Source: Deltaproteobacteria bacterium
GTDB lineage: Bacteria; Myxococcota; JACRCW01
Direction: 5' to 3'
Assembly (NCBI GenBank): GCA_016218805.1
Contig: JACRCW010000136.1
Coordinates: 1 to 64,000 of the forward strand
Length of the DNA stretch: 64,000 nucleotides
Shown: in pieces, positions 2,404 through 13,566 of the stretch
Position numbering within the stretch: position 1 is the stretch's first letter
How the letters are laid out: every line of letters starts with the position of its first letter
Notes under the pieces: generated by a model
Seen by the model: the letters and a program-made list of their open reading frames with translations, nothing else
What the model was told of the DNA's origin: nothing
Database searches by the model: none
Program-made: the position numbers and the translations under genes

Positions 2404-2567
2404 GGTGCGCCTCCTCCGGAAGCGTCCGCGGTAACACGCTGGAAAAAGACCTTCAAAGGCGGGTGTTTGCCCCAAGGCGCCGCCAGAAATTTGGAGGGCG
2501 CGCGGCTCCGCCGTATTCCAGCGCGCGTCGGTGGTTCCATGCTGGAGCCACCCGGAGCCAGCCACCC

Positions 2568-3224
2568 ATGAAGCACCTGTGCGAACACTGCGGCCAGAAG
2601 TACGCCATCCCCGACGAGCGCGTGAGCCGGAAGATCCTGAAGATCCGTTGCCAGAAGTGCCAGGGCACCATGGTGGTGGACGGGTCCGAGGTGGTGCCGG
2701 GGCGCCAGTCCATCCCGCCGCCGGTGAGCCGCACGCCGGACCCGGTGGGCGCACGCGAGTGGTTTGTGGGCATTGCCGGGCGGCCGCACGGTCCGTACAC
2801 GCGCCACGACGTGCTGGACCTGGTGGACCGCGGCGAAGTCCGCGCGCGCACGTACATGTGGAAGGGCGGCCTGGTGGCGTGGCACCGCGTCAATGAGGGC
2901 GCAGAGCTGGACTGGGTTTACGGCGCCGTGCAGTTCCGCGAGACGCACGCGGACGCGTACGCGTACCGGACGCCCACGCGGGTGTTTGAACTGATGCCGC
3001 CGTCCCTGGTCACCGACGGACGCAGCTACTTCCCGGACCCCACGCTGCACTCCGGCTGGGCGGTGCTCTCTGAAGAGGCGCGCGCGGACCTGGACGCGGT
3101 GCGCCAGCGCGAAGAACGCCACGCGCAGCGCCAGCAGGTGACCCGTTGGGCCGTGCACGCGGCGGTGCTGGCGGCGCTGACCCTGGTGGGCGCGGCCGGC
3201 GCGTGGGCCGCCACGCTGGTCTGA
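2568..3224 (+). CDS. MJ0042-type zinc-finger / GYF_2 domain membrane-anchored protein
   Basis: CEHC-x19-CQKC; WFVGIAGRPHGPY...TYMWKGG..W; C-terminal TM helix. Confidence 0.8.
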   Translation: MKHLCEHCGQKYAIPDERVSRKILKIRCQKCQGTMVVDGSEVVPGRQSIPPPVSRTPDPVGAREWFVGIAGRPHGPYTRHDVLDLVDRGEVRARTYMWKGGLVAWHRVNEGAELDWVYGAVQFRETHADAYAYRTPTRVFELMPPSLVTDGRSYFPDPTLHSGWAVLSEEARADLDAVRQREERHAQRQQVTRWAVHAAVLAALTLVGAAGAWAATLV

Positions 3225-3267: not shown

Positions 3268-4581
3268 ATGTCCTGGGCGCTGCTGCTCTCTGCCGTCGTC
3301 GTCGCCGCCGCACTTCCGCCGGCCGGCGAGTGGCGGCTGGACCGCCAGGATACCAAGGTGAAGGTGCTGGCCTGGGGCATGTTCTGCGGGAAGGAACCGC
3401 GGGACGGCCGCGGCCTGCCGGGCGCGCGCTATGTGCTCACCCACGACGGCACGGGGTTTGTGCTCAAGGGGGCGGGCAAGGCGTTTGGGACGGTGGGGTG
3501 CAGCATGGACCCGCCCATCTACAAGCAGCGCCTGGCTGACAAGACGCAGAAGGGCTGGCGCGTGGAGTGCGAAGCCCCGCCCATTGCCGGCACACCGCAG
3601 GTCAATGAGCACGTGTTTGAGGTGGAAGACGCCGCCATCCGCTACGTGACGCGTGGCGAAAAGCGGAAGACCGAGAACCTGGAAGCGTGCCGCTACGCGT
3701 ACGAGACGGAGATGCGGTTTGTGCTGGCCACGGAGTCCGGCCCGTGCGCCAGCCCCGGCCCGGCTGCGCGCCTGGTGGTGGAACCGGGCACCGTGGACGC
3801 GCGCCCCGGCCAGCGCATCTGCTTCAAGGCTTCCGCCACCGACGCGCATGACTGCGCGGTCCCCGCCGGCGCCGTGGCGTACGCCGTGGAACCCAAGGGC
3901 GTGGGCGAACTGGACGGCAACGGCTGCCTGTGGGCGCCCCGCGAGATCAAGGACGCCGTGGTTCTGGCCGTCACCGCCACCGCCGGCGACGTGCGCGGCA
4001 ACAGCGTGGTCCGCGTGGCCCCTGAAGAGGCCGCCCGGACCGAGAGCATTGAACAGACCGCCGCCCGCACCGGCAGTGACGCCGTCAAGCAGATGGTCAG
4101 CCAGGTGCGCGCGGGTGACTTCGTCGTCAAGGCGCCGTTTGAGGAGGAGGAGGAACCCGCCGCGGCCCCGGCTGCGCCTGTCGCGACGCCGCCTGCAGAT
4201 GCTCCCGGCCTGCCGCCCTGGCTCCCCGTCGCCGGCGGCGGGGCGGTTGTGGTGGTTGCCGCGCTGGCCTTTGCGCTGGCGCGCCGGAAGAAGCCCGCCC
4301 AGGTCCCGGCGCCACCGCCCGTGGTGGCGCCTCCCGTGGCGGCGCCCGAAGCGGGTAGGGGCTACAAATGCCCCCAATGCGGGTTTGAGTACGCCGCCGC
4401 CGGGAAGTGCGTCCATGACGGGACGGAGCTGGTCATCAACGAGGCGCGTGGCCGGCAGACGCTGTTCATTCCGCAGGTGGGCGGCATGGTGTGCCCCACG
4501 TGCGGGCAGAAGTACCCCACGCGCGCGCGGTTCTGCGGCAATGACCGCACGCCGCTGGTGCCGGACCTGCCCAAGCTGTGA
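3268..4581 (+). CDS. Exported single-pass membrane protein with tandem C-terminal zinc ribbons
   Basis: Signal peptide, Cys-containing ectodomain, TM followed by RRKK, then CPQC..CVHD and CPTC..FCGND motifs. Confidence 0.75.
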   Translation: MSWALLLSAVVVAAALPPAGEWRLDRQDTKVKVLAWGMFCGKEPRDGRGLPGARYVLTHDGTGFVLKGAGKAFGTVGCSMDPPIYKQRLADKTQKGWRVECEAPPIAGTPQVNEHVFEVEDAAIRYVTRGEKRKTENLEACRYAYETEMRFVLATESGPCASPGPAARLVVEPGTVDARPGQRICFKASATDAHDCAVPAGAVAYAVEPKGVGELDGNGCLWAPREIKDAVVLAVTATAGDVRGNSVVRVAPEEAARTESIEQTAARTGSDAVKQMVSQVRAGDFVVKAPFEEEEEPAAAPAAPVATPPADAPGLPPWLPVAGGGAVVVVAALAFALARRKKPAQVPAPPPVVAPPVAAPEAGRGYKCPQCGFEYAAAGKCVHDGTELVINEARGRQTLFIPQVGGMVCPTCGQKYPTRARFCGNDRTPLVPDLPKL

Positions 4582-4591
4582 CGACGGTGGC

Positions 4592-5149
4592 CTAGGGGAA
4601 AATCTCGCCCTTTTCAGCCTGCACCTTGTCCTGCAGCATCATCAGCGCGTCCAGCACGGCTTCCGGCCGCGGCGGGCAGCCCGGGATGTACACGTCAACC
4701 GGGATGATGTTGTCAATACCCTGCACCACTGCGTAGTTGTCGTAAAACCCGCCCGACGACGCGCACACGCCGAACGCGATCACCCACTTGGGCTCCGCCA
4801 TCTGGTCATACACGCGCTTGAGCGCCGGTGCCTGCTTGTGCGTGATGGTGCCCACCACAAACAAGAGGTCCGACTGGCGCGGGCTGAACCGCGGAAACTC
4901 CGCGCCGAACCGTGCGATGTCATACCGCGGCGCCCACACGCTCATGAACTCCATGCCGCAGCACGCCGTCACGTACGGGTACTGGAAGAAGCTGTACTTG
5001 CGCGCCCAGTTCACCGCCGGCGCGGACTTCTCATTGAGCCAGTCCTTGGGGCCCTGGAGCATCTTGCTGAAGAAGCCCCGGGCCTCATCACGTCGGGTCA
5101 CCAGCACGTCGCCGCCCAGCACCGCGTCGTCGCCCTTGAACTCAGCCAT
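4592..5149 (-). CDS. nuoB: NADH-quinone oxidoreductase subunit B
   Basis: [22 protein letters not shown] and [11 protein letters not shown]2-cluster motifs. Confidence 0.96.
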
Positions 5150-5152
5150 GCG

Positions 5153-5509
5153 TCACTCCCACTCCAGGGCGCCCTTGCGCCACACGTAGGCCAGGCCCAC
5201 GGCGAGGATGGCCATGAACACCACCATCTCCAACAGCCCAAACATCCCCAGCTGCCGGTACAGCACCGCCCACGGGTAGAGAAACACCACTTCAATGTCG
5301 AACACGATGAACAGCAGCGCCACCAGGTAGAAGCGCACCGAGAAGCGCTGGCGTGTGGTGCCCACACTCTCCGTGCCGCACTCAAACGGCGCGCCCTTCA
5401 CCTTGGAGGGCTTGCTGGGGCCGATGAAGATGGCCATGGCAAGCATGCCGCCCGCCACGAGCATCCCCAGGACCATCATGAACGCCACGCCTGCGTAACC
5501 CTGATCCAT
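5153..5509 (-). CDS. nuoA: NADH-quinone oxidoreductase subunit A
   Basis: PFECG, RFYLVALLFIVFDIEVVFLYPWA and KGALEW motifs. Confidence 0.96.
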   Translation of the reverse strand: MDQGYAGVAFMMVLGMLVAGGMLAMAIFIGPSKPSKVKGAPFECGTESVGTTRQRFSVRFYLVALLFIVFDIEVVFLYPWAVLYRQLGMFGLLEMVVFMAILAVGLAYVWRKGALEWE

Positions 5510-5638
5510 GCGCGTCCACCTCCGGGGGGAATGGAACGGCTCCGCCCGAGGGCACGGGCTTCTATCGGGTCATCCTTCCGACGGCAAGGCGGCCCGGCGT
5601 TTGAACGGCGCCCCGCGGACCCCTACAACGCGCCCGTC

Positions 5639-6316
5639 GTGTCCGCGCTGCCTCAAGCTTCCTCCTTGGCCCCAGGTTGGCTGCACGCGCAGGGCCGCCG
5701 CGCCCGGCTGCAACAGGCGCTGGGGCTGTCAGGGCTTGTTGGGCTGGGGCTGTTCACCGTGGTGCACGTAGCGGGGATGCTGCCGGCGGCGGTGGCGGGC
5801 GCGGACGGCTTCAACACCACGCTGCCGTGGCGGCGCAGCGTGGTCGTTGGCGTGCTCACGTGGATGTGGCTCGCGGTGCCGCTTGTGGTGCACGTCGCCG
5901 CAGGCACGTTGCTGGCGCGGCGCTGGCGTTTCTCCGTCGGACGTTGGCCCACGCCGGGAAACTGGGTGCTGGCGCTCCGGCGCGTGTCTGCCGTTGTCGT
6001 GGGCCTGTTTCTGGTTGAGCACGTGTGGGACGTGCGCGTGGCACCGCTGTGGCTGGGGCGCACGGTGGACGGCGCGTACATGCAACGGCACCTCGCGCTC
6101 ACCTGGACACTGGACTGGTACGTGCTCGGCGTGTCGGCAACGTCGTTCCACCTGGCGGCGGGGGCGTGGACGGTGTTGTGCCGCTGGGGTCTGCTCCGAA
6201 GCGCGTGGGCGCAGCGCTGGGGGGCCTGGGCGGCCGCCGCCGCGGGGCTGGCGTTGGCGGCGACGGGCATGGCCGCGGCCGTGGGGCTGCATGACGCCCG
6301 CCTGGTGGTGCCATGA
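5639..6316 (+). CDS. Succinate dehydrogenase cytochrome b558 (Bacillus-type SdhC)-like membrane anchor
   Basis: About five TM segments with His at the four expected heme-ligand positions (VVHV, VVHVAAG, EHVW, SFHL); GTG start uncertain; stop overlaps the next ATG (ATGA). Confidence 0.65.
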   Translation: MSALPQASSLAPGWLHAQGRRARLQQALGLSGLVGLGLFTVVHVAGMLPAAVAGADGFNTTLPWRRSVVVGVLTWMWLAVPLVVHVAAGTLLARRWRFSVGRWPTPGNWVLALRRVSAVVVGLFLVEHVWDVRVAPLWLGRTVDGAYMQRHLALTWTLDWYVLGVSATSFHLAAGAWTVLCRWGLLRSAWAQRWGAWAAAAAGLALAATGMAAAVGLHDARLVVP

Positions 6317-7560
6317 GCGGGGTGGTGGTGGTTGCCGGGGGCGGACCGGCCGCGCTGTGGGTGGCCCTGGAGCTGGTCCACGCGGGACGCCCGGTGGAAC
6401 TGGTCTGCAGCACGCCGCCGGAGCGGGGCACGCGCTTTTCCACGGGATTGCTGACGGGCTCCACCCCGCCAGGAGATGTCGCCCGGTGGACCCCGGTGCT
6501 GGAATCCGCGCGGGCGGTGGCGGTCACGCTGGACCGGCTGGGCGTTCCGTTTGAACGCACCCCGGAAGGCCGTCCGCGCCTCGTGGATGCGCCCGGACGG
6601 GTTCACGCGGGGCCCCACACCGGATTGCACCTCCAGCGCGCGCTGGCATCCCAGGTTCGGGCCGCGCAGTCCGCCGGCCAACTGGTGTTGCACGACCACC
6701 ACGCGCTGCTGGAGGTGACCGTTGTCGACGGTGGCGTGCGCGGCGTGATGGTGGCGGACGCGTGGCGCGGCACGGTGGCGCGGATCCACGCGGACGCGTT
6801 GTGCCTGGCGGAGGAACGCACCGAAGCGCTCCACGACGGAGCGACGGCCGGGCCGGGAGATGCGGTGGGTGCGCTTCACACGGCGCTGCAGGCAGGGGCG
6901 GCGTGGGAGGATCCGGACCTGGCGCGCTGGCACGGGTGCGCACCCGTGGGGGCGTCCTGGTGGCCGGCCTGGGAGGGCGGCGGCCACATGGCGGCGATGG
7001 GATCCGTGGGCGGGCTGGTGACGGATCCGCAGGGGCGGTGCATGGGCGTGACCGGATTGTGGGCGGCGGGCGGCTGCGCCCTGGCGGTGCGCGAGGTGGA
7101 CGCGCTGCCGGGCGCGGCCACGACGTGGGACCTGGGATGCGCGCGGCTTGTGGGGCGGGCCCTGGCGGCCGCGCAAGGCGGCAGCGCCGCGGCACACAGC
7201 GACGACCTCAACGGGTGGCCCGCTCGTCTGGACGCGCTGGGTGATGGCGCCGGGCCGGAGACCGTGGCCGCGGTGCAGCAGCAGGTGGATGCGTTGTGCG
7301 CGCGGGTGCTGGGACGCGCGCGTTCGGGGGAAGCGCTGGCGGCGGCCAGCGAAGAACTCCGCACCCTGGCAGACCGCGCGGCGGCGGCGGCCGTTGGCGG
7401 GCGTGGGTCCCCGGGCGTCATGGCGGCGGAACGGTTGCGCCGGCGCGTGGCCCTGCTGGGGCCCGTCATGACGGCTGCGCGGCACCGCGCGGAAGGCGAG
7501 GGCAGGGCGCGTGTGAAGGCGGTGGACGGCGCGTTCCAACTCGAGTGGGAGCGGGCATGA
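6313..7560 (+). CDS. Degenerate SdhA/FrdA-like flavoprotein (shortened, catalytic motifs lost)
   Basis: VVVAGGGPAA dinucleotide motif, LDRLGVPFERTPEG, AGPHTGLHLQRAL, GGLVTD...GLWAAGGC; lacks the RSHS, ATGG, HY.MGG and NRLG motifs. Confidence 0.75.
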   Translation: MSGVVVVAGGGPAALWVALELVHAGRPVELVCSTPPERGTRFSTGLLTGSTPPGDVARWTPVLESARAVAVTLDRLGVPFERTPEGRPRLVDAPGRVHAGPHTGLHLQRALASQVRAAQSAGQLVLHDHHALLEVTVVDGGVRGVMVADAWRGTVARIHADALCLAEERTEALHDGATAGPGDAVGALHTALQAGAAWEDPDLARWHGCAPVGASWWPAWEGGGHMAAMGSVGGLVTDPQGRCMGVTGLWAAGGCALAVREVDALPGAATTWDLGCARLVGRALAAAQGGSAAAHSDDLNGWPARLDALGDGAGPETVAAVQQQVDALCARVLGRARSGEALAAASEELRTLADRAAAAAVGGRGSPGVMAAERLRRRVALLGPVMTAARHRAEGEGRARVKAVDGAFQLEWERA

Positions 7561-8264
7561 GCGCATCCCTGTTGCTGGCGCTGGCACTGGCCGCACAGAC
7601 CCCACCGGTGGTGACGCCGGCGCCGGAAGCCACCGCAGCCGCGGAGCCCGCGGTGTTCTCCAACGCGTGGTGGGACAGGTGGCGCATCAAGGCCCGCGAC
7701 CGGCTGCCCACCCCGCTGGGCTGGGTGGGCGTGGCCGGCATGATGGCGTCGGGGTTTGTGGTTGCCGGCGGGCTGGCGCTGGCGGGTGCTGCGTCCGTCC
7801 AGATCCTGCGGGGCCGCGCGGCGCAGGATGCGTATGACCGCTCCCATGCTGACACCACGACGACGGAAGGCGAACGCGCACAGCTGGCGCTGCTCAAGGA
7901 CAGCCGCGATGCGTTTGACAGTTCGCGCTGGCTGGCGCTGGCGGGCGGGGCAGTGCTGGTGATCGGGCTGCTCGGGAGCCTGGCCGGGGGCACTGCCGTC
8001 ATCGTCGATGAAACGTTCTTTGTGCCCGCGCTGCGCGCCCGACACCCGCTGTGGGCCATCTTTGGCCCGGCGTTGGGAACGCGCGAGCCGCCGGAGATGT
8101 GGCCGCCCGTTCCCCGCCCGGACGTTCCCGGCGTGTTCACCCCTCCCAGGGACCCTGCTCCCAAACCACCCGCCGCGGCGGTGCCGCCCGCGCCTGTCCC
8201 CGCGCCAGAGCCCGCTCCGCCGCCTCCCGCCCCGGTCACGCCACCCCTGCCGGAGGCCAAATGA
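7557..8264 (+). CDS. Hypothetical membrane protein (signal peptide, 2 TMs, Pro-rich tail) inserted in the sdh-like operon
   Basis: Start MSASLLLALALAA; ATGA overlaps at both ends. Confidence 0.7.
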   Translation: MSASLLLALALAAQTPPVVTPAPEATAAAEPAVFSNAWWDRWRIKARDRLPTPLGWVGVAGMMASGFVVAGGLALAGAASVQILRGRAAQDAYDRSHADTTTTEGERAQLALLKDSRDAFDSSRWLALAGGAVLVIGLLGSLAGGTAVIVDETFFVPALRARHPLWAIFGPALGTREPPEMWPPVPRPDVPGVFTPPRDPAPKPPAAAVPPAPVPAPEPAPPPPAPVTPPLPEAK

Positions 8265-8974
8265 CGACCAACCTGGCAATCCACCGGCGCGACCGCGCTG
8301 GCGAGCGCGTGGATCGCTTTGTCGTGAACCATCCGCCGGACCGGACGCTGTTGGACGTCTTACGCGCCCTCGCTGCTGCCCCGGTGACGTCGGACGGCAG
8401 GACGGTGGCGCCCGTGGTGTTTGAGGACGCGTGCGCCGGGCCGCTGTGTGGCAGCTGTGCCCTGTCCGTGGACGGCTGGCCCGCCATGGCCTGCCGCGTC
8501 CGCGTCGGTGACCTTGGGAGCCAGGCCGTGCTCGGACCACTGCCGGGGTTTCCCGTCGTCGCGGACCTGCTGGTGGACCGCGGCGCTGTGGGGCGTGCGC
8601 TGGTGGACGCGCGGGCATGGCTGGAGTTGGACGGGTGGGCCGGGCCGGAGGCCTCCCCGTGGTCCGCCCAAGCGGCGCAGCACGCCCAGAGCGCGCACGC
8701 CTGCACGGCCTGCGGCGCGTGCCAGGGGGCCTGCCCGGCCATGGGGAGCCGTTCGCCGTACCGGGGACCGCTGGTGATGGCCGCCTGGGAGTTGCTGGAT
8801 TCCACGCCCACCGGCCGCCTTCAGACGGGTGTGCGGCGCGCCCTGGCCGCGTCCGACGGGGGAATCGCGGATTGCGGGCACGCGCGCGTGTGCCGTGACG
8901 TCTGCCCGCAGCGCCTCCCCATGGGCGAACTGCTTGGGTCCCTGTCCGCAGGCGTCATGCGGGGCCGCGAATGA
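8261..8974 (+). CDS. SdhB/FrdB-like iron-sulfur subunit
   Basis: CAGPLCGSC..C (2Fe-2S), CTACGACQGACP and CGHARVCRDVCP cluster motifs; DLLVDR. Confidence 0.85.
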   Translation: MTTNLAIHRRDRAGERVDRFVVNHPPDRTLLDVLRALAAAPVTSDGRTVAPVVFEDACAGPLCGSCALSVDGWPAMACRVRVGDLGSQAVLGPLPGFPVVADLLVDRGAVGRALVDARAWLELDGWAGPEASPWSAQAAQHAQSAHACTACGACQGACPAMGSRSPYRGPLVMAAWELLDSTPTGRLQTGVRRALAASDGGIADCGHARVCRDVCPQRLPMGELLGSLSAGVMRGRE

Positions 8975-9567
8975 GGCGCGCCCGCGTTGTGGTGGTGCGC
9001 CACGGAGAGACGGATTGGAACGTGGCCGGCCGGATGCAGGGACACACGGACACGGACCTCAACGAGCGCGGCCGCGCGCAGGCCCAGGCGCTGGCGGAGC
9101 TGCTCGTCGAGGAGGGCATCGGCCGGATCATCGCCAGTGACCTGGCGCGGGCGCGGCAGACCGCGCAGATCATTGCGGGGCGGCTGGGCCTGGCCGTGGA
9201 GACGGACGCGCTGTTGCGCGAGCGGAAGTTCGGCATCTTTGAAGGGCTGAGTTGGGAGGAGATCGCGGAGCGCCATCCTGATTGGTACGCGCGCTACCGT
9301 GCGGACCACTGGGCGGACATCCCGGGCGCGGAGGCCCTCACGGCGCTGCGCGAACGTTCCTGGGAGGCGCTGGTGCGCCACGCCCGTCACGCCCGGCCTG
9401 GCGCGCCGGTCCTCGTTGTCACGCATGGGGGCGTGCTGCGGTCCATGCTGGTCCGCCTGATGGGGGACAACGCGCCGCGGCCCGTGCTCAACGCGGTGCC
9501 ATACGTGTTCCGCCTGCGCCAGGGCCAGCCTGCCGAGGTGGAGCTTCCCAAACTCCTTCCGCCGTGA
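8971..9567 (+). CDS. Histidine phosphatase (phosphoglycerate mutase family)
   Basis: RHGETDWN, SDLARA.QTA and VTHGG motifs. Confidence 0.92.
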   Translation: MRRARVVVVRHGETDWNVAGRMQGHTDTDLNERGRAQAQALAELLVEEGIGRIIASDLARARQTAQIIAGRLGLAVETDALLRERKFGIFEGLSWEEIAERHPDWYARYRADHWADIPGAEALTALRERSWEALVRHARHARPGAPVLVVTHGGVLRSMLVRLMGDNAPRPVLNAVPYVFRLRQGQPAEVELPKLLPP

Positions 9568-9615
9568 TGGCGCGGGGCTGCCAGGGATGCAGCCACCGAA
9601 AAGTGTCTCACTGGA

Positions 9616-9963
9616 GTGGAAGAACTGGTCCGGCGGACTGGGATACCCAGGGCCAACGTGCACCGCCTGAAGTCCGGGCAGGTCCGCGCCATCCGCCTCT
9701 CCCTGCTCGAGGCGCTGTGCCAGGCGCTCGCCTGCACCCCTGCGGATCTCCTGGCGTACGTCCCAGCGTCGTCGTCGCATGGGCCGCTCCCGGGTGACGC
9801 CCCCCAGCAGGCGGTGCTGGACGCGCTGGGCCACGGGCCCACACATCCTGATGACGTTGGGACCGCGACGGGCCTGCGCGCGCAGGAGGTGAGCGTTGCC
9901 CTGCTGGCGCTGGAGCTTGCTGACCTGGTGGTGAAGACCGGCCCGCTGTACCGGCGCCGGTGA
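9616..9963 (+). CDS. Cro/C1-type HTH protein fused to a DprA-like winged-helix domain
   Basis: KSGQVRAIRLSLLEALCQALACTPADLL (YozG-like HTH) plus VLDALG..PTHPDDV...VSVALLALELADLV (DprA C-terminal wH-like); start uncertain. Confidence 0.65.
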   Translation: MEELVRRTGIPRANVHRLKSGQVRAIRLSLLEALCQALACTPADLLAYVPASSSHGPLPGDAPQQAVLDALGHGPTHPDDVGTATGLRAQEVSVALLALELADLVVKTGPLYRRR

Positions 9964-9969
9964 CGGCGC

Positions 9970-10710
9970 TCAGTCGCGTTCCACGCGGACCAGCTTGGCG
10001 GGGTCCAGCCGCGCCAACAGCCAGTCCGTGGCGCGGGTGACCAGGTCCGCGTCGCGGCTCTCCAGCGTCACGCGCACGCGGTGGTCCGGGTCGTTCATCC
10101 GCGGGTAGCTGCCAATCTCCACGCCGGCATGCGCGGCCAGCGTGGCCTCCAGGTGTTCGGCAAGCTCGGATTCACCCTGCTGCGTGTAGATGCTCTGCAG
10201 GCGGATGGGCGTGCCCTGCAGGCGCGGCGCCAGGCTCTCCAGCATGGACTGGAACAGCGACGGGATGCCTGGCAGCACGTAGACGTTGCGCACAAGCACC
10301 ACGGGGACCCACATGCCGTCGGTATGGACCAGTTCGCACGGGTGGGGGAGGTCCGCCATGCGGAGCCGGACCGCCGTCAACCGCGGGCCGTAGAAGTCCT
10401 CCATGCGCGCGGCCAGCGCGTGGTGCCGGCGCACGGGGAGGTCAAACGCGCGCGCCACGCCCTTATAGGTGACGTCGTCATGCGTGGGACCCACGCCGCC
10501 GCTGGTGAACACCACGCTGCTGCGCGCGCTCTCCTCGGCCACCACCGATCCAATGAGCTCCACGACGTCCGGGATGACCTGGATGCGCTGCAGGTCCACG
10601 CCGCGGGTGCGCAGGAAGCGGGCCAGGTGGTGGGCGTTGGAATCCCGCGTCTTGCCCGAGAGGATCTCGTTGCCTACCACCACGCAGCTGGCGGAAAGGA
10701 CCTGCGCCAC
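9970..10710 (-). CDS. CinA/molybdopterin-binding domain protein
   Basis: GNEILSGKTRDSN, TSGGVGPTHDDVT, LPGIP and IGSYP motifs. Confidence 0.9.
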   Translation of the reverse strand: MAQVLSASCVVVGNEILSGKTRDSNAHHLARFLRTRGVDLQRIQVIPDVVELIGSVVAEESARSSVVFTSGGVGPTHDDVTYKGVARAFDLPVRRHHALAARMEDFYGPRLTAVRLRMADLPHPCELVHTDGMWVPVVLVRNVYVLPGIPSLFQSMLESLAPRLQGTPIRLQSIYTQQGESELAEHLEATLAAHAGVEIGSYPRMNDPDHRVRVTLESRDADLVTRATDWLLARLDPAKLVRVERD

Positions 10711-11954: not shown

Positions 11955-13566
11955 GCGCGGCCAGCGCGGTGAGACCCGCCGCGTAGATACGCGCAAGTTC
12001 AAACAGCTCCGCCGTGGTGATGGACTCGTCCGGCCCGTGGCGCCGTTCCGCGGCGCCGTCTTCTTCAGGGCCAAAGCTCACGGCGTTGGGAATGGCCTTG
12101 GCGTAGGTGGTGCCCGCCAACGTGACGGGCCGGGCCGGCCGCCCGGTGGCCGCGGTGTACGCGGACAGCAGCGCGGTCACTTCCGGGCGGGCGGGGTCCT
12201 GGTCCAGCGCGGGCAATCCGCCGCCGTCCACCACCAGCCCCAGCGGCCGGCCCCGCTCCGCCGCCCAGGACGCGGCGGCCGCGCGGACACGCTCCACCAC
12301 CTCCACCGGCGTGCGGCCCGGAACAAAGCGGATGTTCAGGCTGGCCACCAGTACGGCACCGTCGTGACGCAGGCGCCCCAGGTTCACCGTGGTGCGCCCG
12401 AACCGCGCGTGCTCCGACGCGATACCCAGCTTTTCGCCGTACAACTCCATGCCCACGCGTGCCGCCAGGAAACGCACCAGCTGGGTCCCGGGCGCGTCCT
12501 CGTCCAGTTGCGCGTGCGTATCCAGCGCAACCATCAGCGCCGCCAGCGCGTTGCGGCCCTGCTCCGGCGTGGAGGCATGCGCGGCCTTTCCCGTCGCGCG
12601 GACCCGCAACCTCCCGGCTCCAGCCGCTTCCACCTGGACGCGCCGCTCGTCGGCCAGGCGCGCGCGCACGGCGTCGGCCGCGCCCGCACAACGCAACTCC
12701 GCCTCCGCGCGGTCCGGGACCACGTTGCCCGCCACCCCGCCGTCCAGCCTGACCACCGCACACCGCCCAGCGGCCGGCTCCCGCTCCGCCCACCGCTCGG
12801 CCACCTTGATGCTCGCCAGCCCCTTTTCGCCCACGCCCACGGGGAAAGACCCGTCAATGACGAACGTGAACGCCGGGGGCGCGTGGCTGGCCAGATAGCC
12901 CTCCATGCACTCCCACGTCGTCTCCTCGGCCATGCCCACCATCAGCCGCGTGCGGAAAGGGCGCGCCGCCCCGGCGTCACGCGTCACCGCCATGGCCACC
13001 AGCGCCGCCACCAGCGGCCCCTTGTCGTCCATGGTCCCCCGCCCCAGCACCTTGCCGTCGCGCACCTCGCCGCTGAACGCCGGAAACGTCCACCCGTCCC
13101 CCGCGGGCACCACGTCGCCGTGCGCCAGGATGCCCAGCTCCCGCGGCGCGCCCGGCGGTTCGCTGTCCAGCGTGATTTCCGCCACCCGCGGCGTGGCCTC
13201 GCGGAAGACCAGGCCCAGCGCGGCCGCCTGCGCCTGCAGCGCGCGGAAGAACGCCGCGCGCTCGCGCGGCTCGTGCGCCGGGTCCTGCTCGTCCACGTAC
13301 GTGCGGTGGACCACCAGCGCGGACAACAGGCCCGGCAGGCGCTCGGCGTAGCGGGAACGCAACAGCTCCTCCACGCGGTCACGCGCGGCCGGGGCATGCG
13401 GGACGGCGCCCTGGCTGCGCTCCTTGAGCGCGTGCGGGTTGGTCTGCGGCGTGCGGCTGAGGGCGTGGTCCGCTTCAGCGGAGGAGGGCGTTTCACACCC
13501 CGCCAGCGCGGTCACAAGCGCGGCCCACACCACCGCTCCACGACGTTCAACGTGCATGGACGCCAT
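11944..13566 (-). CDS. M20 family metallo-dipeptidase (PepV/Sapep-like), probable lipoprotein
   Basis: HGDVVP, GRGTMDDKGP, MAEET, GKAAHAS and GTTYAK motifs; LAGC lipobox; the track ORF extends spuriously across the tRNA. Confidence 0.88.
   Translation of the reverse strand: MASMHVERRGAVVWAALVTALAGCETPSSAEADHALSRTPQTNPHALKERSQGAVPHAPAARDRVEELLRSRYAERLPGLLSALVVHRTYVDEQDPAHEPRERAAFFRALQAQAAALGLVFREATPRVAEITLDSEPPGAPRELGILAHGDVVPAGDGWTFPAFSGEVRDGKVLGRGTMDDKGPLVAALVAMAVTRDAGAARPFRTRLMVGMAEETTWECMEGYLASHAPPAFTFVIDGSFPVGVGEKGLASIKVAERWAEREPAAGRCAVVRLDGGVAGNVVPDRAEAELRCAGAADAVRARLADERRVQVEAAGAGRLRVRATGKAAHASTPEQGRNALAALMVALDTHAQLDEDAPGTQLVRFLAARVGMELYGEKLGIASEHARFGRTTVNLGRLRHDGAVLVASLNIRFVPGRTPVEVVERVRAAAASWAAERGRPLGLVVDGGGLPALDQDPARPEVTALLSAYTAATGRPARPVTLAGTTYAKAIPNAVSFGPEEDGAAERRHGPDESITTAELFELARIYAAGLTALAALKP

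Follow-up and report, generated by a model that had tools for sequence, protein, structure and literature searches.

Positions 5639–9567 (plus strand) of a 64,000-nucleotide stretch from a Deltaproteobacteria bacterium of the phylum Myxococcota (positions 1 to 64,000 of contig JACRCW010000136.1, assembly GCA_016218805.1; the whole stretch is called the window in the following) carry an operon of five genes in the order sdhC-like, sdhA-like, orf3, sdhB-like and histidine phosphatase. Judged from sequence, this operon is a real, lineage-restricted and fast-evolving paralogue of the Bacillus-type complex II, that is, of the type B enzyme with a single membrane anchor and two haems. Few respiratory enzymes are better known than complex II, whose flavoprotein normally is the most conserved subunit. 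Here the order of constraint appears reversed relative to the housekeeping enzyme, in that the membrane anchor, the iron-sulfur (Fe-S) subunit and a new protein persist and it is the catalytic head that has been stripped. With a probability of roughly 0.5, we propose that the operon encodes a working, quinone-linked electron-transfer complex which does not use succinate and whose head is vestigial or repurposed.

The operon and its proteins

The five open reading frames (ORFs), located at 5639–6316, 6313–7560, 7557–8264, 8261–8974 and 8971–9567 on the plus strand, are all joined by ATGA stop/start overlaps, at positions 6313, 7557, 8261 and 8971. The G+C content of the operon is approximately 75%, compared with 70% for the genome (G000; assembly of 6.4 Mb in 170 contigs, 92% complete), and the G+C content at third codon positions (GC3) is 0.82–0.87 in the named frame of each gene. 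Long open frames carry little weight at this composition, because an Arg/Pro/Ala-rich antisense ORF of 650 amino acids (5653–7605, minus strand), which we interpret as a by-product of high G+C and coding-strand GC3, overlies sdhC-like and sdhA-like. The case therefore rests on family matches and on conservation in other lineages, namely in G001, a Myxococcota metagenome-assembled genome (MAG) of the same family as G000, and in L055, a single metagenome contig.

The sdhC-like gene (5639..6316, plus strand) starts with GTG and encodes a predicted dihaem cytochrome b of 225 amino acids, a membrane anchor of the b558 type. Its product scores 56.7 bits with the b558 family model TIGR02046, below the cut-off of 96, and the relatives from G001 and L055 reach 95.4 and 52.2 bits respectively. 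His43, His85, His128 and His171, located in the first four hydrophobic stretches of the protein, do not vary in a seven-sequence alignment with canonical SdhC proteins. A hydropathy scan recognizes five such stretches in the L055, G001 and canonical SdhC proteins, the fourth of the window protein falling below the threshold used. The profile of the seven-sequence alignment matches the SdhC chain of the Chloroflexus aurantiacus succinate dehydrogenase (9lay_C, E 9.5e-44), and the four histidines align to the motifs which carry His32, His81, His135 and His188, named as axial haem ligands in PMC12663545. The four axial histidines for two haems b thus seem to be kept, and haem binding is predicted. 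At identities of 45% and 40% to the L055 and G001 proteins, five histidines are invariant in the three lineages, the four ligand positions among them.

The sdhB-like gene (8261..8974, plus strand; 237 amino acids) encodes an iron-sulfur protein with apparently complete ligand sets for a [2Fe-2S], a [4Fe-4S] and a [3Fe-4S] cluster. The motifs CxxxxCxxC...C (C58, C63, C66, C78), CxxCxxCxxxCP (C148, C151, C154, C158) and CxxxxxCxxxCP (C205, C211, C215) are all kept. Their 11 cysteines, which are every cysteine of the protein, are invariant in seven sequences, four canonical SdhB proteins included. Across the three operon lineages alone 11/11 are invariant, compared with a column-wide rate of 26%, which would arise by chance with a probability of 3e-7. 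The protein exceeds the cut-off of the general model TIGR00384 (90.1 bits, cut-off 88) and stays below that of the Bacillus-type equivalog PRK08640 (152.7 bits, cut-off 244).

The sdhA-like gene (6313..7560, plus strand) encodes a putative flavoprotein shell of 415 amino acids, composed of the core of the flavin adenine dinucleotide (FAD)-binding domain and a helical/C-terminal part. It contains LDRLGVPFERTPEG and AGPHTGLHLQRAL and is recognized by PF00890 (FAD_binding_2) with 33.3 bits (cut-off 20.4, E 4e-8). Its best NCBIfam matches are of the Bacillus type, TIGR01811 (47.4 bits, cut-off 541.35) and PRK08641 (41.3 bits, cut-off 855), neither cut-off being reached. An alignment with the genome's own SdhA and other homologues (A1) locates the losses. 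At the position of the His which covalently binds 8-alpha-FAD there is no His, nor is there one anywhere in residues 33–55; LAEER stands at the position of LATGG, WHGC at that of HPT, AAMGSVGG without a His at that of HYxMGG, and REVDALPG, from which the catalytic Arg is gone, at that of HGANRLG. The equivalent of Arg286 (E. coli SdhA numbering read from the alignment) is absent along with the capping domain, of which approximately 120 columns are missing. Congruently, the phmmer match to E. coli FrdA jumps from FrdA residue 237 to 358 across query residues 211–231.

The AlphaFold2 model of the SdhA-like protein, calculated from a 40-row alignment, has a predicted local distance difference test (pLDDT) value of 87.7 and a predicted template modelling (pTM) score of 0.91, and only residues 211–220 are disordered, forming a 10-residue loop exactly at the cap site. 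Foldseek matches to FrdA and SdhA chains have template modelling (TM) scores of 0.80–0.86 (normalised by the query), and the best match, an FrdA chain, has 487 residues, fewer than the remaining FrdA chains in the list. The protein is thus confidently modelled to fold as a capless complex II flavoprotein. Without a capping domain, a covalent-FAD His or the catalytic His and Arg, it is judged very unlikely to be a working succinate enzyme that would catalyse succinate oxidation or fumarate reduction by the known route. The initial annotation of this stretch, drawn from the letters and their translations, had described five unbroken genes with four ATGA overlaps, an SdhC-like protein with four His at haem positions, an SdhB-like protein with three Cys cluster motifs, and a flavoprotein of 415 amino acids with Bacillus-type motifs, from which the covalent-FAD His, ATGG, HYxMGG, the catalytic Arg motif NRLG and, apparently, the capping domain had disappeared. 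Alignments, profile searches and the structural model bear out this description throughout.

Between sdhA-like and sdhB-like, orf3 (7557..8264, plus strand) encodes a protein of 235 amino acids with two hydrophobic helices (stretches 52–86 and 122–156), the second of which is followed by a conserved acidic, aromatic and Pro-rich segment, and with a tail rich in Pro. It has no Pfam or NCBIfam match. With 56% identity and a z-score of 9.6 it is the best conserved of the five genes in the window–L055 pair, to which this ranking applies, and it is 42% identical to the G001 homologue over residues 72–231; its invariant residues include D151, E152, H163, W166, R176, M181 and W182. Among 5.8 billion clusters the L055 protein is the only further relative, and a search of the ESM Atlas gave no lead (best feature score 0.88, best TM 0.48–0.50, all sub-threshold). 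Complex prediction with SdhA-like residues 4–413, SdhB-like 1–232, SdhC-like 28–225 and orf3 45–198 returned a score of 0.00 in two runs with orf3 as partner, which is no verdict for or against binding.

The last gene of the operon (8971..9567, plus strand) encodes a histidine phosphatase of 198 amino acids, of branch 1 of the superfamily (PF00300, 181.6 bits, cut-off 21.7). No specific equivalog is reached, the best NCBIfam match being the alpha-ribazole phosphatase model TIGR03162 with 131.2 bits, below the cut-off of 162.9. The three lineages share RHGETDWN and THGG, at 51% identity. On L055, a protein of 204 amino acids with a secreted appearance is encoded between sdhB-like and the phosphatase gene (12820–13434, plus strand); a Temptin_C domain (55.2 bits) and a single CxxCH motif are recognized in it, and its C-terminal end is hydrophobic. 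Seven matches to it occur elsewhere in the G001 genome and none in G000.

Relatives, selection and composition

The same genome encodes a canonical sdhCAB on contig C29, with an SdhC of 219, an SdhA of 637 and an SdhB of 259 amino acids, and this housekeeping SdhA carries all catalytic motifs in alignment A1. The housekeeping copy belongs to the PRK07573/PRK07570 type (1187 and 421 bits). The operon genes are nearest to the Bacillus-type PRK08641/PRK08640, the G001 SdhB-like protein even surpassing the PRK08640 cut-off of 244 with 313.9 bits. Because the subfamilies differ, the operon is not a recent duplicate of the housekeeping copy. NadB is encoded on contig C77, and a third FAD_binding_2 gene of the genome is found on contig C28 (54164–55447, minus strand; 78.8 bits, 457-amino acid open frame). 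The idea that the SdhB/SdhC-like pair of the window uses a full-length flavoprotein encoded elsewhere was dropped, because strong FAD_binding_2 matches outside the operon are limited to the canonical SdhA (encoded beside its own SdhB and SdhC), NadB and the 457-amino acid ORF on C28.

The searches for relatives yielded few. Querying 1.84 billion representatives with the SdhA-like protein identified 44 proteins at E ≤ 0.001 and four, the query included, at E ≤ 1e-10. The nearest relatives are P0006 (549 amino acids, the G001 protein), P0009 (430 amino acids, encoded on L055), P0011 (490 amino acids) and P0017 (400 amino acids). A word-indexed protein search retrieved the SdhA-like protein itself only; with the SdhB-like protein it likewise found only the query at E ≤ 1e-10 among 8000 candidates scored, which is uninformative. 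Searched with the SdhA-like protein, 41 related genomes contained only G001 above a weak match. A five-sequence profile run against 401 genomes of the phylum, a tally which counts the unpublished genome G195, scored 622.8 bits in G001 and 321 and 191 bits, in two pieces, in G000. The other listed matches of at most 265 bits lie in open frames of approximately 620–1080 amino acids and are taken to be ordinary flavoproteins. In two genomes of the sister family, queries with orf3 and the SdhB-like protein found no orf3 match, and SdhB matches of canonical level only (31% identity). A contig scan with the L055 SdhA-like protein P0009 uncovered 10 weak loci, one in a Gammaproteobacteria MAG and nine in Solirubrobacterales MAGs, with 25–30% identity over approximately 115–190 residues, which are not counted as members.

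Among other metagenome SdhA-like proteins, P0012 and P0015 (587–588 amino acids) keep the cap and lack the covalent His, and GANALSGN or GANALDGN indicates the loss of the Arg; the 17 members of the 90% cluster around P0012 bear the name 'FAD-binding protein [Acidobacteriota bacterium]'. P0022 and P0030 (485–493 amino acids) are capless and keep ESRG(V/G)H, and P0010, P0013, P0018 and P0019 form a further short group with the motif FAKRH(L/I)GGL. From such catalytically deviant proteins a wider undescribed branch of the complex II superfamily is possible.

The operon itself is syntenic in the three lineages. In G001 it is split over two contig ends, one with nuoB, nuoA, sdhC-like and sdhA-like and the other with a partial orf3, sdhB-like and the phosphatase gene. 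On L055 the order is nuoB, nuoA, sdhC-like, sdhA-like, orf3, sdhB-like, the inserted Temptin_C gene and the phosphatase gene, with the stop/start overlaps kept. Four groundwater metagenome runs of one study contain the window stretch, and one of these runs may be its source. Logan contigs over 4500–9700 are identical to the window across the operon, and the listed differences are confined to nuoB and nuoA, where they come from short pieces with many other letters.

No stop or frameshift was found in any operon gene of the window (five genes), L055 (five) and G001 (five, one of them cut by the contig end). Two further proposals of the initial annotation, a complex II paralogue and its association with a histidine phosphatase, agree with the canonical sdhCAB on C29 and with gene order, the phosphatase travelling with the operon in 3/3 lineages. 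Conservation of the catalytic His and Arg, or decay of the orthologues, had been named there as grounds for refutation; the window protein does not conserve these residues, and its orthologues are free of stops and frameshifts. The roles suggested there, those of an electron conduit, a redox sensor or a pseudo-enzyme, are plausible possibilities.

The rate of change differs strongly between the two copies. Comparing G000 with G001, the canonical SdhA, SdhB and SdhC are 82%, 73% and 54% identical, and the paralogous SdhA-like, SdhB-like and SdhC-like proteins 31–32%, 38–40% and 40%, so that the paralogue appears to evolve several-fold faster than the housekeeping copy. The proportion of synonymous differences (pS) in the five operon genes amounts to 0.89–1.04 of the codon-shuffle baseline, which means that synonymous sites are saturated. 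Relative to its baseline, the proportion of nonsynonymous differences (pN) is 0.47 for orf3, about 0.50 for the phosphatase, 0.54–0.61 for sdhC-like, 0.59–0.64 for sdhB-like and 0.69–0.73 for sdhA-like; the canonical genes have values of 0.46 (SdhC) and 0.17 (SdhA). Because the proteins consist to 40–49% of Gly, Ala, Arg and Pro, shuffled and re-aligned partners were used as control, with which chance identity is 28–32%. Over these shuffles, the z-scores are 8.7 (L055) and 5.5 (G001) for sdhC-like, 6.4 and 6.7 for sdhB-like and 9.2 and 9.7 for the phosphatase. Given the z-scores, that of orf3 included, the invariant ligands and the frames that are intact despite saturated synonymous sites, the anchor, the Fe-S subunit, orf3 and the phosphatase clearly appear to be maintained by purifying selection.

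Conservation of the SdhA-like protein is local. The alignment of five relatives has 28 invariant columns, compared with 5.8 +/- 2.7 (maximum 11) in shuffles. Residues 1–60 contribute seven (V6, V7, G9, A14, G25, V28 and L30, in the dinucleotide-binding beta-alpha-beta unit; shuffle mean 0.88), residues 61–120 eight (the LDRxGVPF...EG...AG region; 0.68) and residues 216–270 four (GGL and GLxAAG; 0.56). Residues 271–415 are at chance level, with four invariant columns and a shuffle mean of 1.84 (maximum 4). It is the FAD-domain core, by this measure, that is still constrained, and the remainder is not. Among the three operon lineages, 46/55 invariant columns of the SdhA-like protein are Gly, Ala, Leu or Val.

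The stripping of the head can be followed within the lineage. The G001 SdhA-like protein, 549 amino acids long, possesses the cap and, by comparison with E. coli SdhA, keeps His242, Glu255, His354 and the ESRG(A/V)H motif; His45 is replaced by Arg, Arg286 by His and Arg399 by Met (E. coli SdhA numbering from the alignment). The window protein (415 amino acids) and the L055 protein (about 400–430 amino acids) have lost the cap and all these residues, and in L055 the GLxAAG segment is missing too. As G001 keeps the cap and both catalytic His, the loss is stepwise.

Amino-acid composition is extreme. Lys, Asn, Ile, Phe and Tyr together make up 1% of the SdhA-like, 3% of the SdhB-like and 4% of the SdhC-like protein and 8% of orf3, compared with 18–24% of the housekeeping subunits (SdhA 24%) and 9–18% of the G001 operon copies. 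G+C at second codon positions (GC2) is approximately 0.57–0.62 in the Sdh-like and orf3 genes versus 0.39–0.41 in nuoA and nuoB. The whole operon is, on these figures, fast-evolving with a composition driven by G+C.

Genes around the operon

Upstream of the operon, on the opposite strand, lie nuoA (5153..5509, minus strand; 118-amino acid ORF) and nuoB (4592..5149, minus strand; 185-amino acid ORF), divergent neighbours outside the operon whose names are a reading of the sequence alone. The window nuoA product is 80% and 81%, and the nuoB product 83% and 82%, identical to the products of the syntenic L055 and G001 genes. The identity of NuoB across the three lineages is 82–85%, so the lineages are about equidistant. 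The divergent arrangement of nuoB-nuoA and sdhC-like is common to the window, L055 and G001. In the window, nuoA and nuoB (4592–5509, minus strand) are isolated; the gene downstream of nuoB sits on the other strand, and the remaining complex I genes must therefore be located elsewhere. In the intergenic region of 129 bp between nuoA and sdhC-like (5510..5638) divergent promoters are presumed. A promoter scan of 5300–10100 listed no sigma-70-like site, two terminator-like sites were found in the same interval (shuffle mean 1.2), and the intergenic regions of the three lineages are barely alignable, with no clear shared motif.

Further upstream, two zinc-ribbon proteins are encoded on the plus strand, one at 2463–3224 with GYF_2 and Zn_ribbon_4 domains and one of 437 amino acids at 3268–4581 with a weakly matched C-terminal double zinc ribbon. 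Downstream, 49 bp past the phosphatase gene, starts the gene for a 115-amino acid protein (9616–9963, plus strand) with a Cro/C1-type helix-turn-helix (HTH_26, 57.7 bits) and a DprA winged-helix domain (57.2 bits), which is not seen at that place in L055 or G001. The following gene (9970–10710, minus strand) encodes a 246-amino acid protein in which MoCF_biosynth (104.9 bits) and the 'FAD synthase middle domain' FLAD1_M (66.9 bits) are recognized. It was considered as a member of the system and dropped, as the ORF lists of L055 and G001, inspected and not family-scanned, contain no such gene after the phosphatase; its closeness to a flavoprotein operon, two genes away, is probably coincidental.

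Possible function and comparison with known complexes

On the reading given above a probability of about 0.5, the products would assemble like complex II, with a dihaem membrane cytochrome b carrying a three-cluster Fe-S subunit and orf3 as an added membrane subunit. Such a complex would shuttle electrons between the menaquinone pool and the cytoplasmic [2Fe-2S] end of the Fe-S chain, with the shrunken flavoprotein as a shell that would cover and dock on this end. The shell may still hold a non-covalent flavin, since the dinucleotide-binding core is the only part of the flavoprotein that is still conserved, and a capless flavin site would be accessible to donors or acceptors that are not small dicarboxylates. 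That the [2Fe-2S] and [4Fe-4S] ligands are fully retained suggests that electrons still reach the flavoprotein side, and this is the chief argument for a non-covalent flavin in the shell or for the docking of another partner there.

A more far-reaching proposal, which we put forward tentatively and regard as rather unlikely, is a new respiratory-type complex in which the haem/Fe-S wire is kept, the head is a non-catalytic shell and the invariant Asp/Glu/His/Trp/Arg/Met-rich segment of orf3 serves as a new docking or reactive site. The wire would then link the menaquinone pool to a partner other than succinate, or report the redox state of the pool with the phosphatase as output. If this were true, the capless or Arg-less SdhA-like proteins of other phyla would point to a wider undescribed branch of complex II.

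Several observations weigh against a working complex. In the window flavoprotein the motifs RSHS/AQGG, ATGG and GANRLG are altered, as is the Glu of GLFAAGE, with GxGxxA kept; the flavin may be gone, which would leave the Fe-S chain without an obvious entry point. The pairwise z-scores of the SdhA-like protein are only 3.9, 2.5 and 1.7, hardly above composition noise, and its real pN of 0.476 compares with 0.520 +/- 0.021 for a shuffled, re-aligned partner. The apparent ratio of nonsynonymous to synonymous rates (dN/dS, NG86 method) of the operon genes is 0.33–0.83, with 0.68 for the functional canonical SdhC by the same method, and is uninformative because dS is saturated. The high Gly, Ala, Arg and Pro content of the three Sdh-like proteins and orf3 looks mutation-driven, and the Sdh-like proteins of the window score below the specific NCBIfam cut-offs, with the general dhsB model (90.1 versus 88) as exception; these features read as signs of relaxed selection. 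The operon is known from three lineages only, all uncultured, and there is no RNA run among the listed sequencing runs that contain the stretch.

Alternatively, the operon could be a redundant Bacillus-type sdhCAB copy en route to loss, gained by acquisition or duplication, dispensable beside the PRK07573-type enzyme, drifting under G+C pressure, with the flavoprotein most decayed and no present function, an explanation we consider doubtful. The canonical sdhCAB is present in the genome, and orf3 and SdhB-like queries found no operon in the two sister-family genomes. The SdhA-like protein is pairwise near saturation and has shrunk from 549 amino acids with cap in G001 to 415 in the window and about 400–430 in L055 without it. 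Composition is extreme, and the scores, already below cut-offs, fall from G001 to the window from 313.9 to 152.7 bits for SdhB-like, from 95.4 to 56.7 for SdhC-like and from 376 to 41 for SdhA-like. However, no frame is broken in three lineages despite saturated synonymous sites, and the overlapping starts and stops are kept. All of the 11 Cys and four ligand His are invariant while approximately 74% of the other columns have changed, SdhC-like is constrained about as much as a working canonical SdhC (pN/baseline 0.54–0.61 versus 0.46), and the best conserved genes are orf3 and the phosphatase, neither of which has a classical role in complex II.

That the SdhA-like protein is instead an active flavoenzyme with a new substrate, with non-covalent FAD in an open site accepting a bulkier substrate or a protein- or quinone-like carrier and feeding the Fe-S/haem wire, seems to us unlikely. 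The dinucleotide-binding fingerprint, GGL and GLxAAG are conserved in the five relatives, the whole Fe-S chain is kept down to the flavoprotein-adjacent [2Fe-2S] cluster, and G001, with its cap and the His of HPxG and HxxxGG combined with the replacements Arg286->His and Arg399->Met, resembles a change of substrate rather than plain loss. Other FAD_binding_2 enzymes have changed specificity, according to one preprint (bioRxiv 10.1101/2022.01.20.477176). On the other hand, no polar active-site residue is left in the window protein, with Gly, Ala, Leu and Val in 46/55 invariant columns, several FAD-contact motifs are replaced, the L055 protein lacks even the GLxAAG segment, and the flavoprotein has gained no new conserved motif. 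Finally, that the sdhA-like ORF is a translated spacer which couples orf3, sdhB-like and the phosphatase gene or avoids polarity on them, its product being irrelevant and its partners working without it, is improbable. In favour of such a spacer, ATGA or similar overlaps flank the gene in the window and L055, the protein is pairwise near saturation and residues 271–415 are without significant conservation (four invariant columns, mean 1.84, maximum 4). Against it, significant conservation is localised to residues 1–120 and 216–270 in five lineages, the SdhA fold is still recognized by Pfam (E 4e-8) and AlphaFold2, and the protein was trimmed by exactly one domain where outright deletion was possible.

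Should the complex be made, the haem/Fe-S wire of complex II would be selectable on its own, for a job other than succinate chemistry, and the lineages, from G001 with the cap to the window and L055 without it, would form a natural series in which to study the non-catalytic contribution of the flavoprotein. A merely decaying paralogue would be a neat example of an operon slowly eroding under G+C pressure, of little further interest. In the full-text literature, coverage of which leaves out most subscription journals, no complex II operon whose flavoprotein has lost its cap and catalytic residues was found described.

With the type B SdhCAB of the Bacillus kind (PRK08641/PRK08640/TIGR02046), to whose models its proteins match best, the operon shares the gene order C-A-B, a b558-type anchor with five hydrophobic stretches in the relatives and four invariant axial-ligand His, three Fe-S cluster motifs, and a flavoprotein fold of FAD and helical domains; the nearest solved anchor is that of the Chloroflexus aurantiacus enzyme (PDB 9lay). 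It differs in that the flavoprotein of the window is without capping domain, covalent His and catalytic His and Arg, that the conserved two-helix protein orf3 is inserted between A and B, that a histidine phosphatase is coupled at the 3' end, and that the window proteins fail the equivalog cut-offs. The housekeeping sdhCAB on C29 has the superfamily, the three subunits and the cofactor ligands in common with the operon, but is of another subfamily, with an SdhA of 637 amino acids and full catalytic motifs. NadB and the soluble FAD_binding_2 reductases share the flavoprotein fold with the SdhA-like protein; unlike the SdhA-like protein, they are soluble and have retained both the cap and the catalytic residues, and no SdhB/SdhC-like partner is encoded alongside them.

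That a dihaem complex II can gain a small membrane subunit in a particular lineage is known from the SdhF of Mycobacterium smegmatis Sdh2 (PDB 6lum; PMC7447783; PMC12663545). Orf3 would be a candidate for an added subunit, but SdhF is a single helix of 3 kDa in a normal succinate dehydrogenase, whereas orf3 has 235 amino acids, two helices and a conserved soluble segment. Complex II subunit paralogues in a complex without succinate chemistry have their precedent in yeast, where Sdh3 (SDHC) and the SDHD paralogue Tim18 serve in the TIM22 translocase (PMC10238741). The yeast pair has lost haem and left redox chemistry, while the window operon keeps the redox ligands and loses the catalytic head. 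What would set this operon apart, as far as its genes and their relatives indicate, are the reversed order of constraint, the added subunit and a loss of the head that is traceable in steps.

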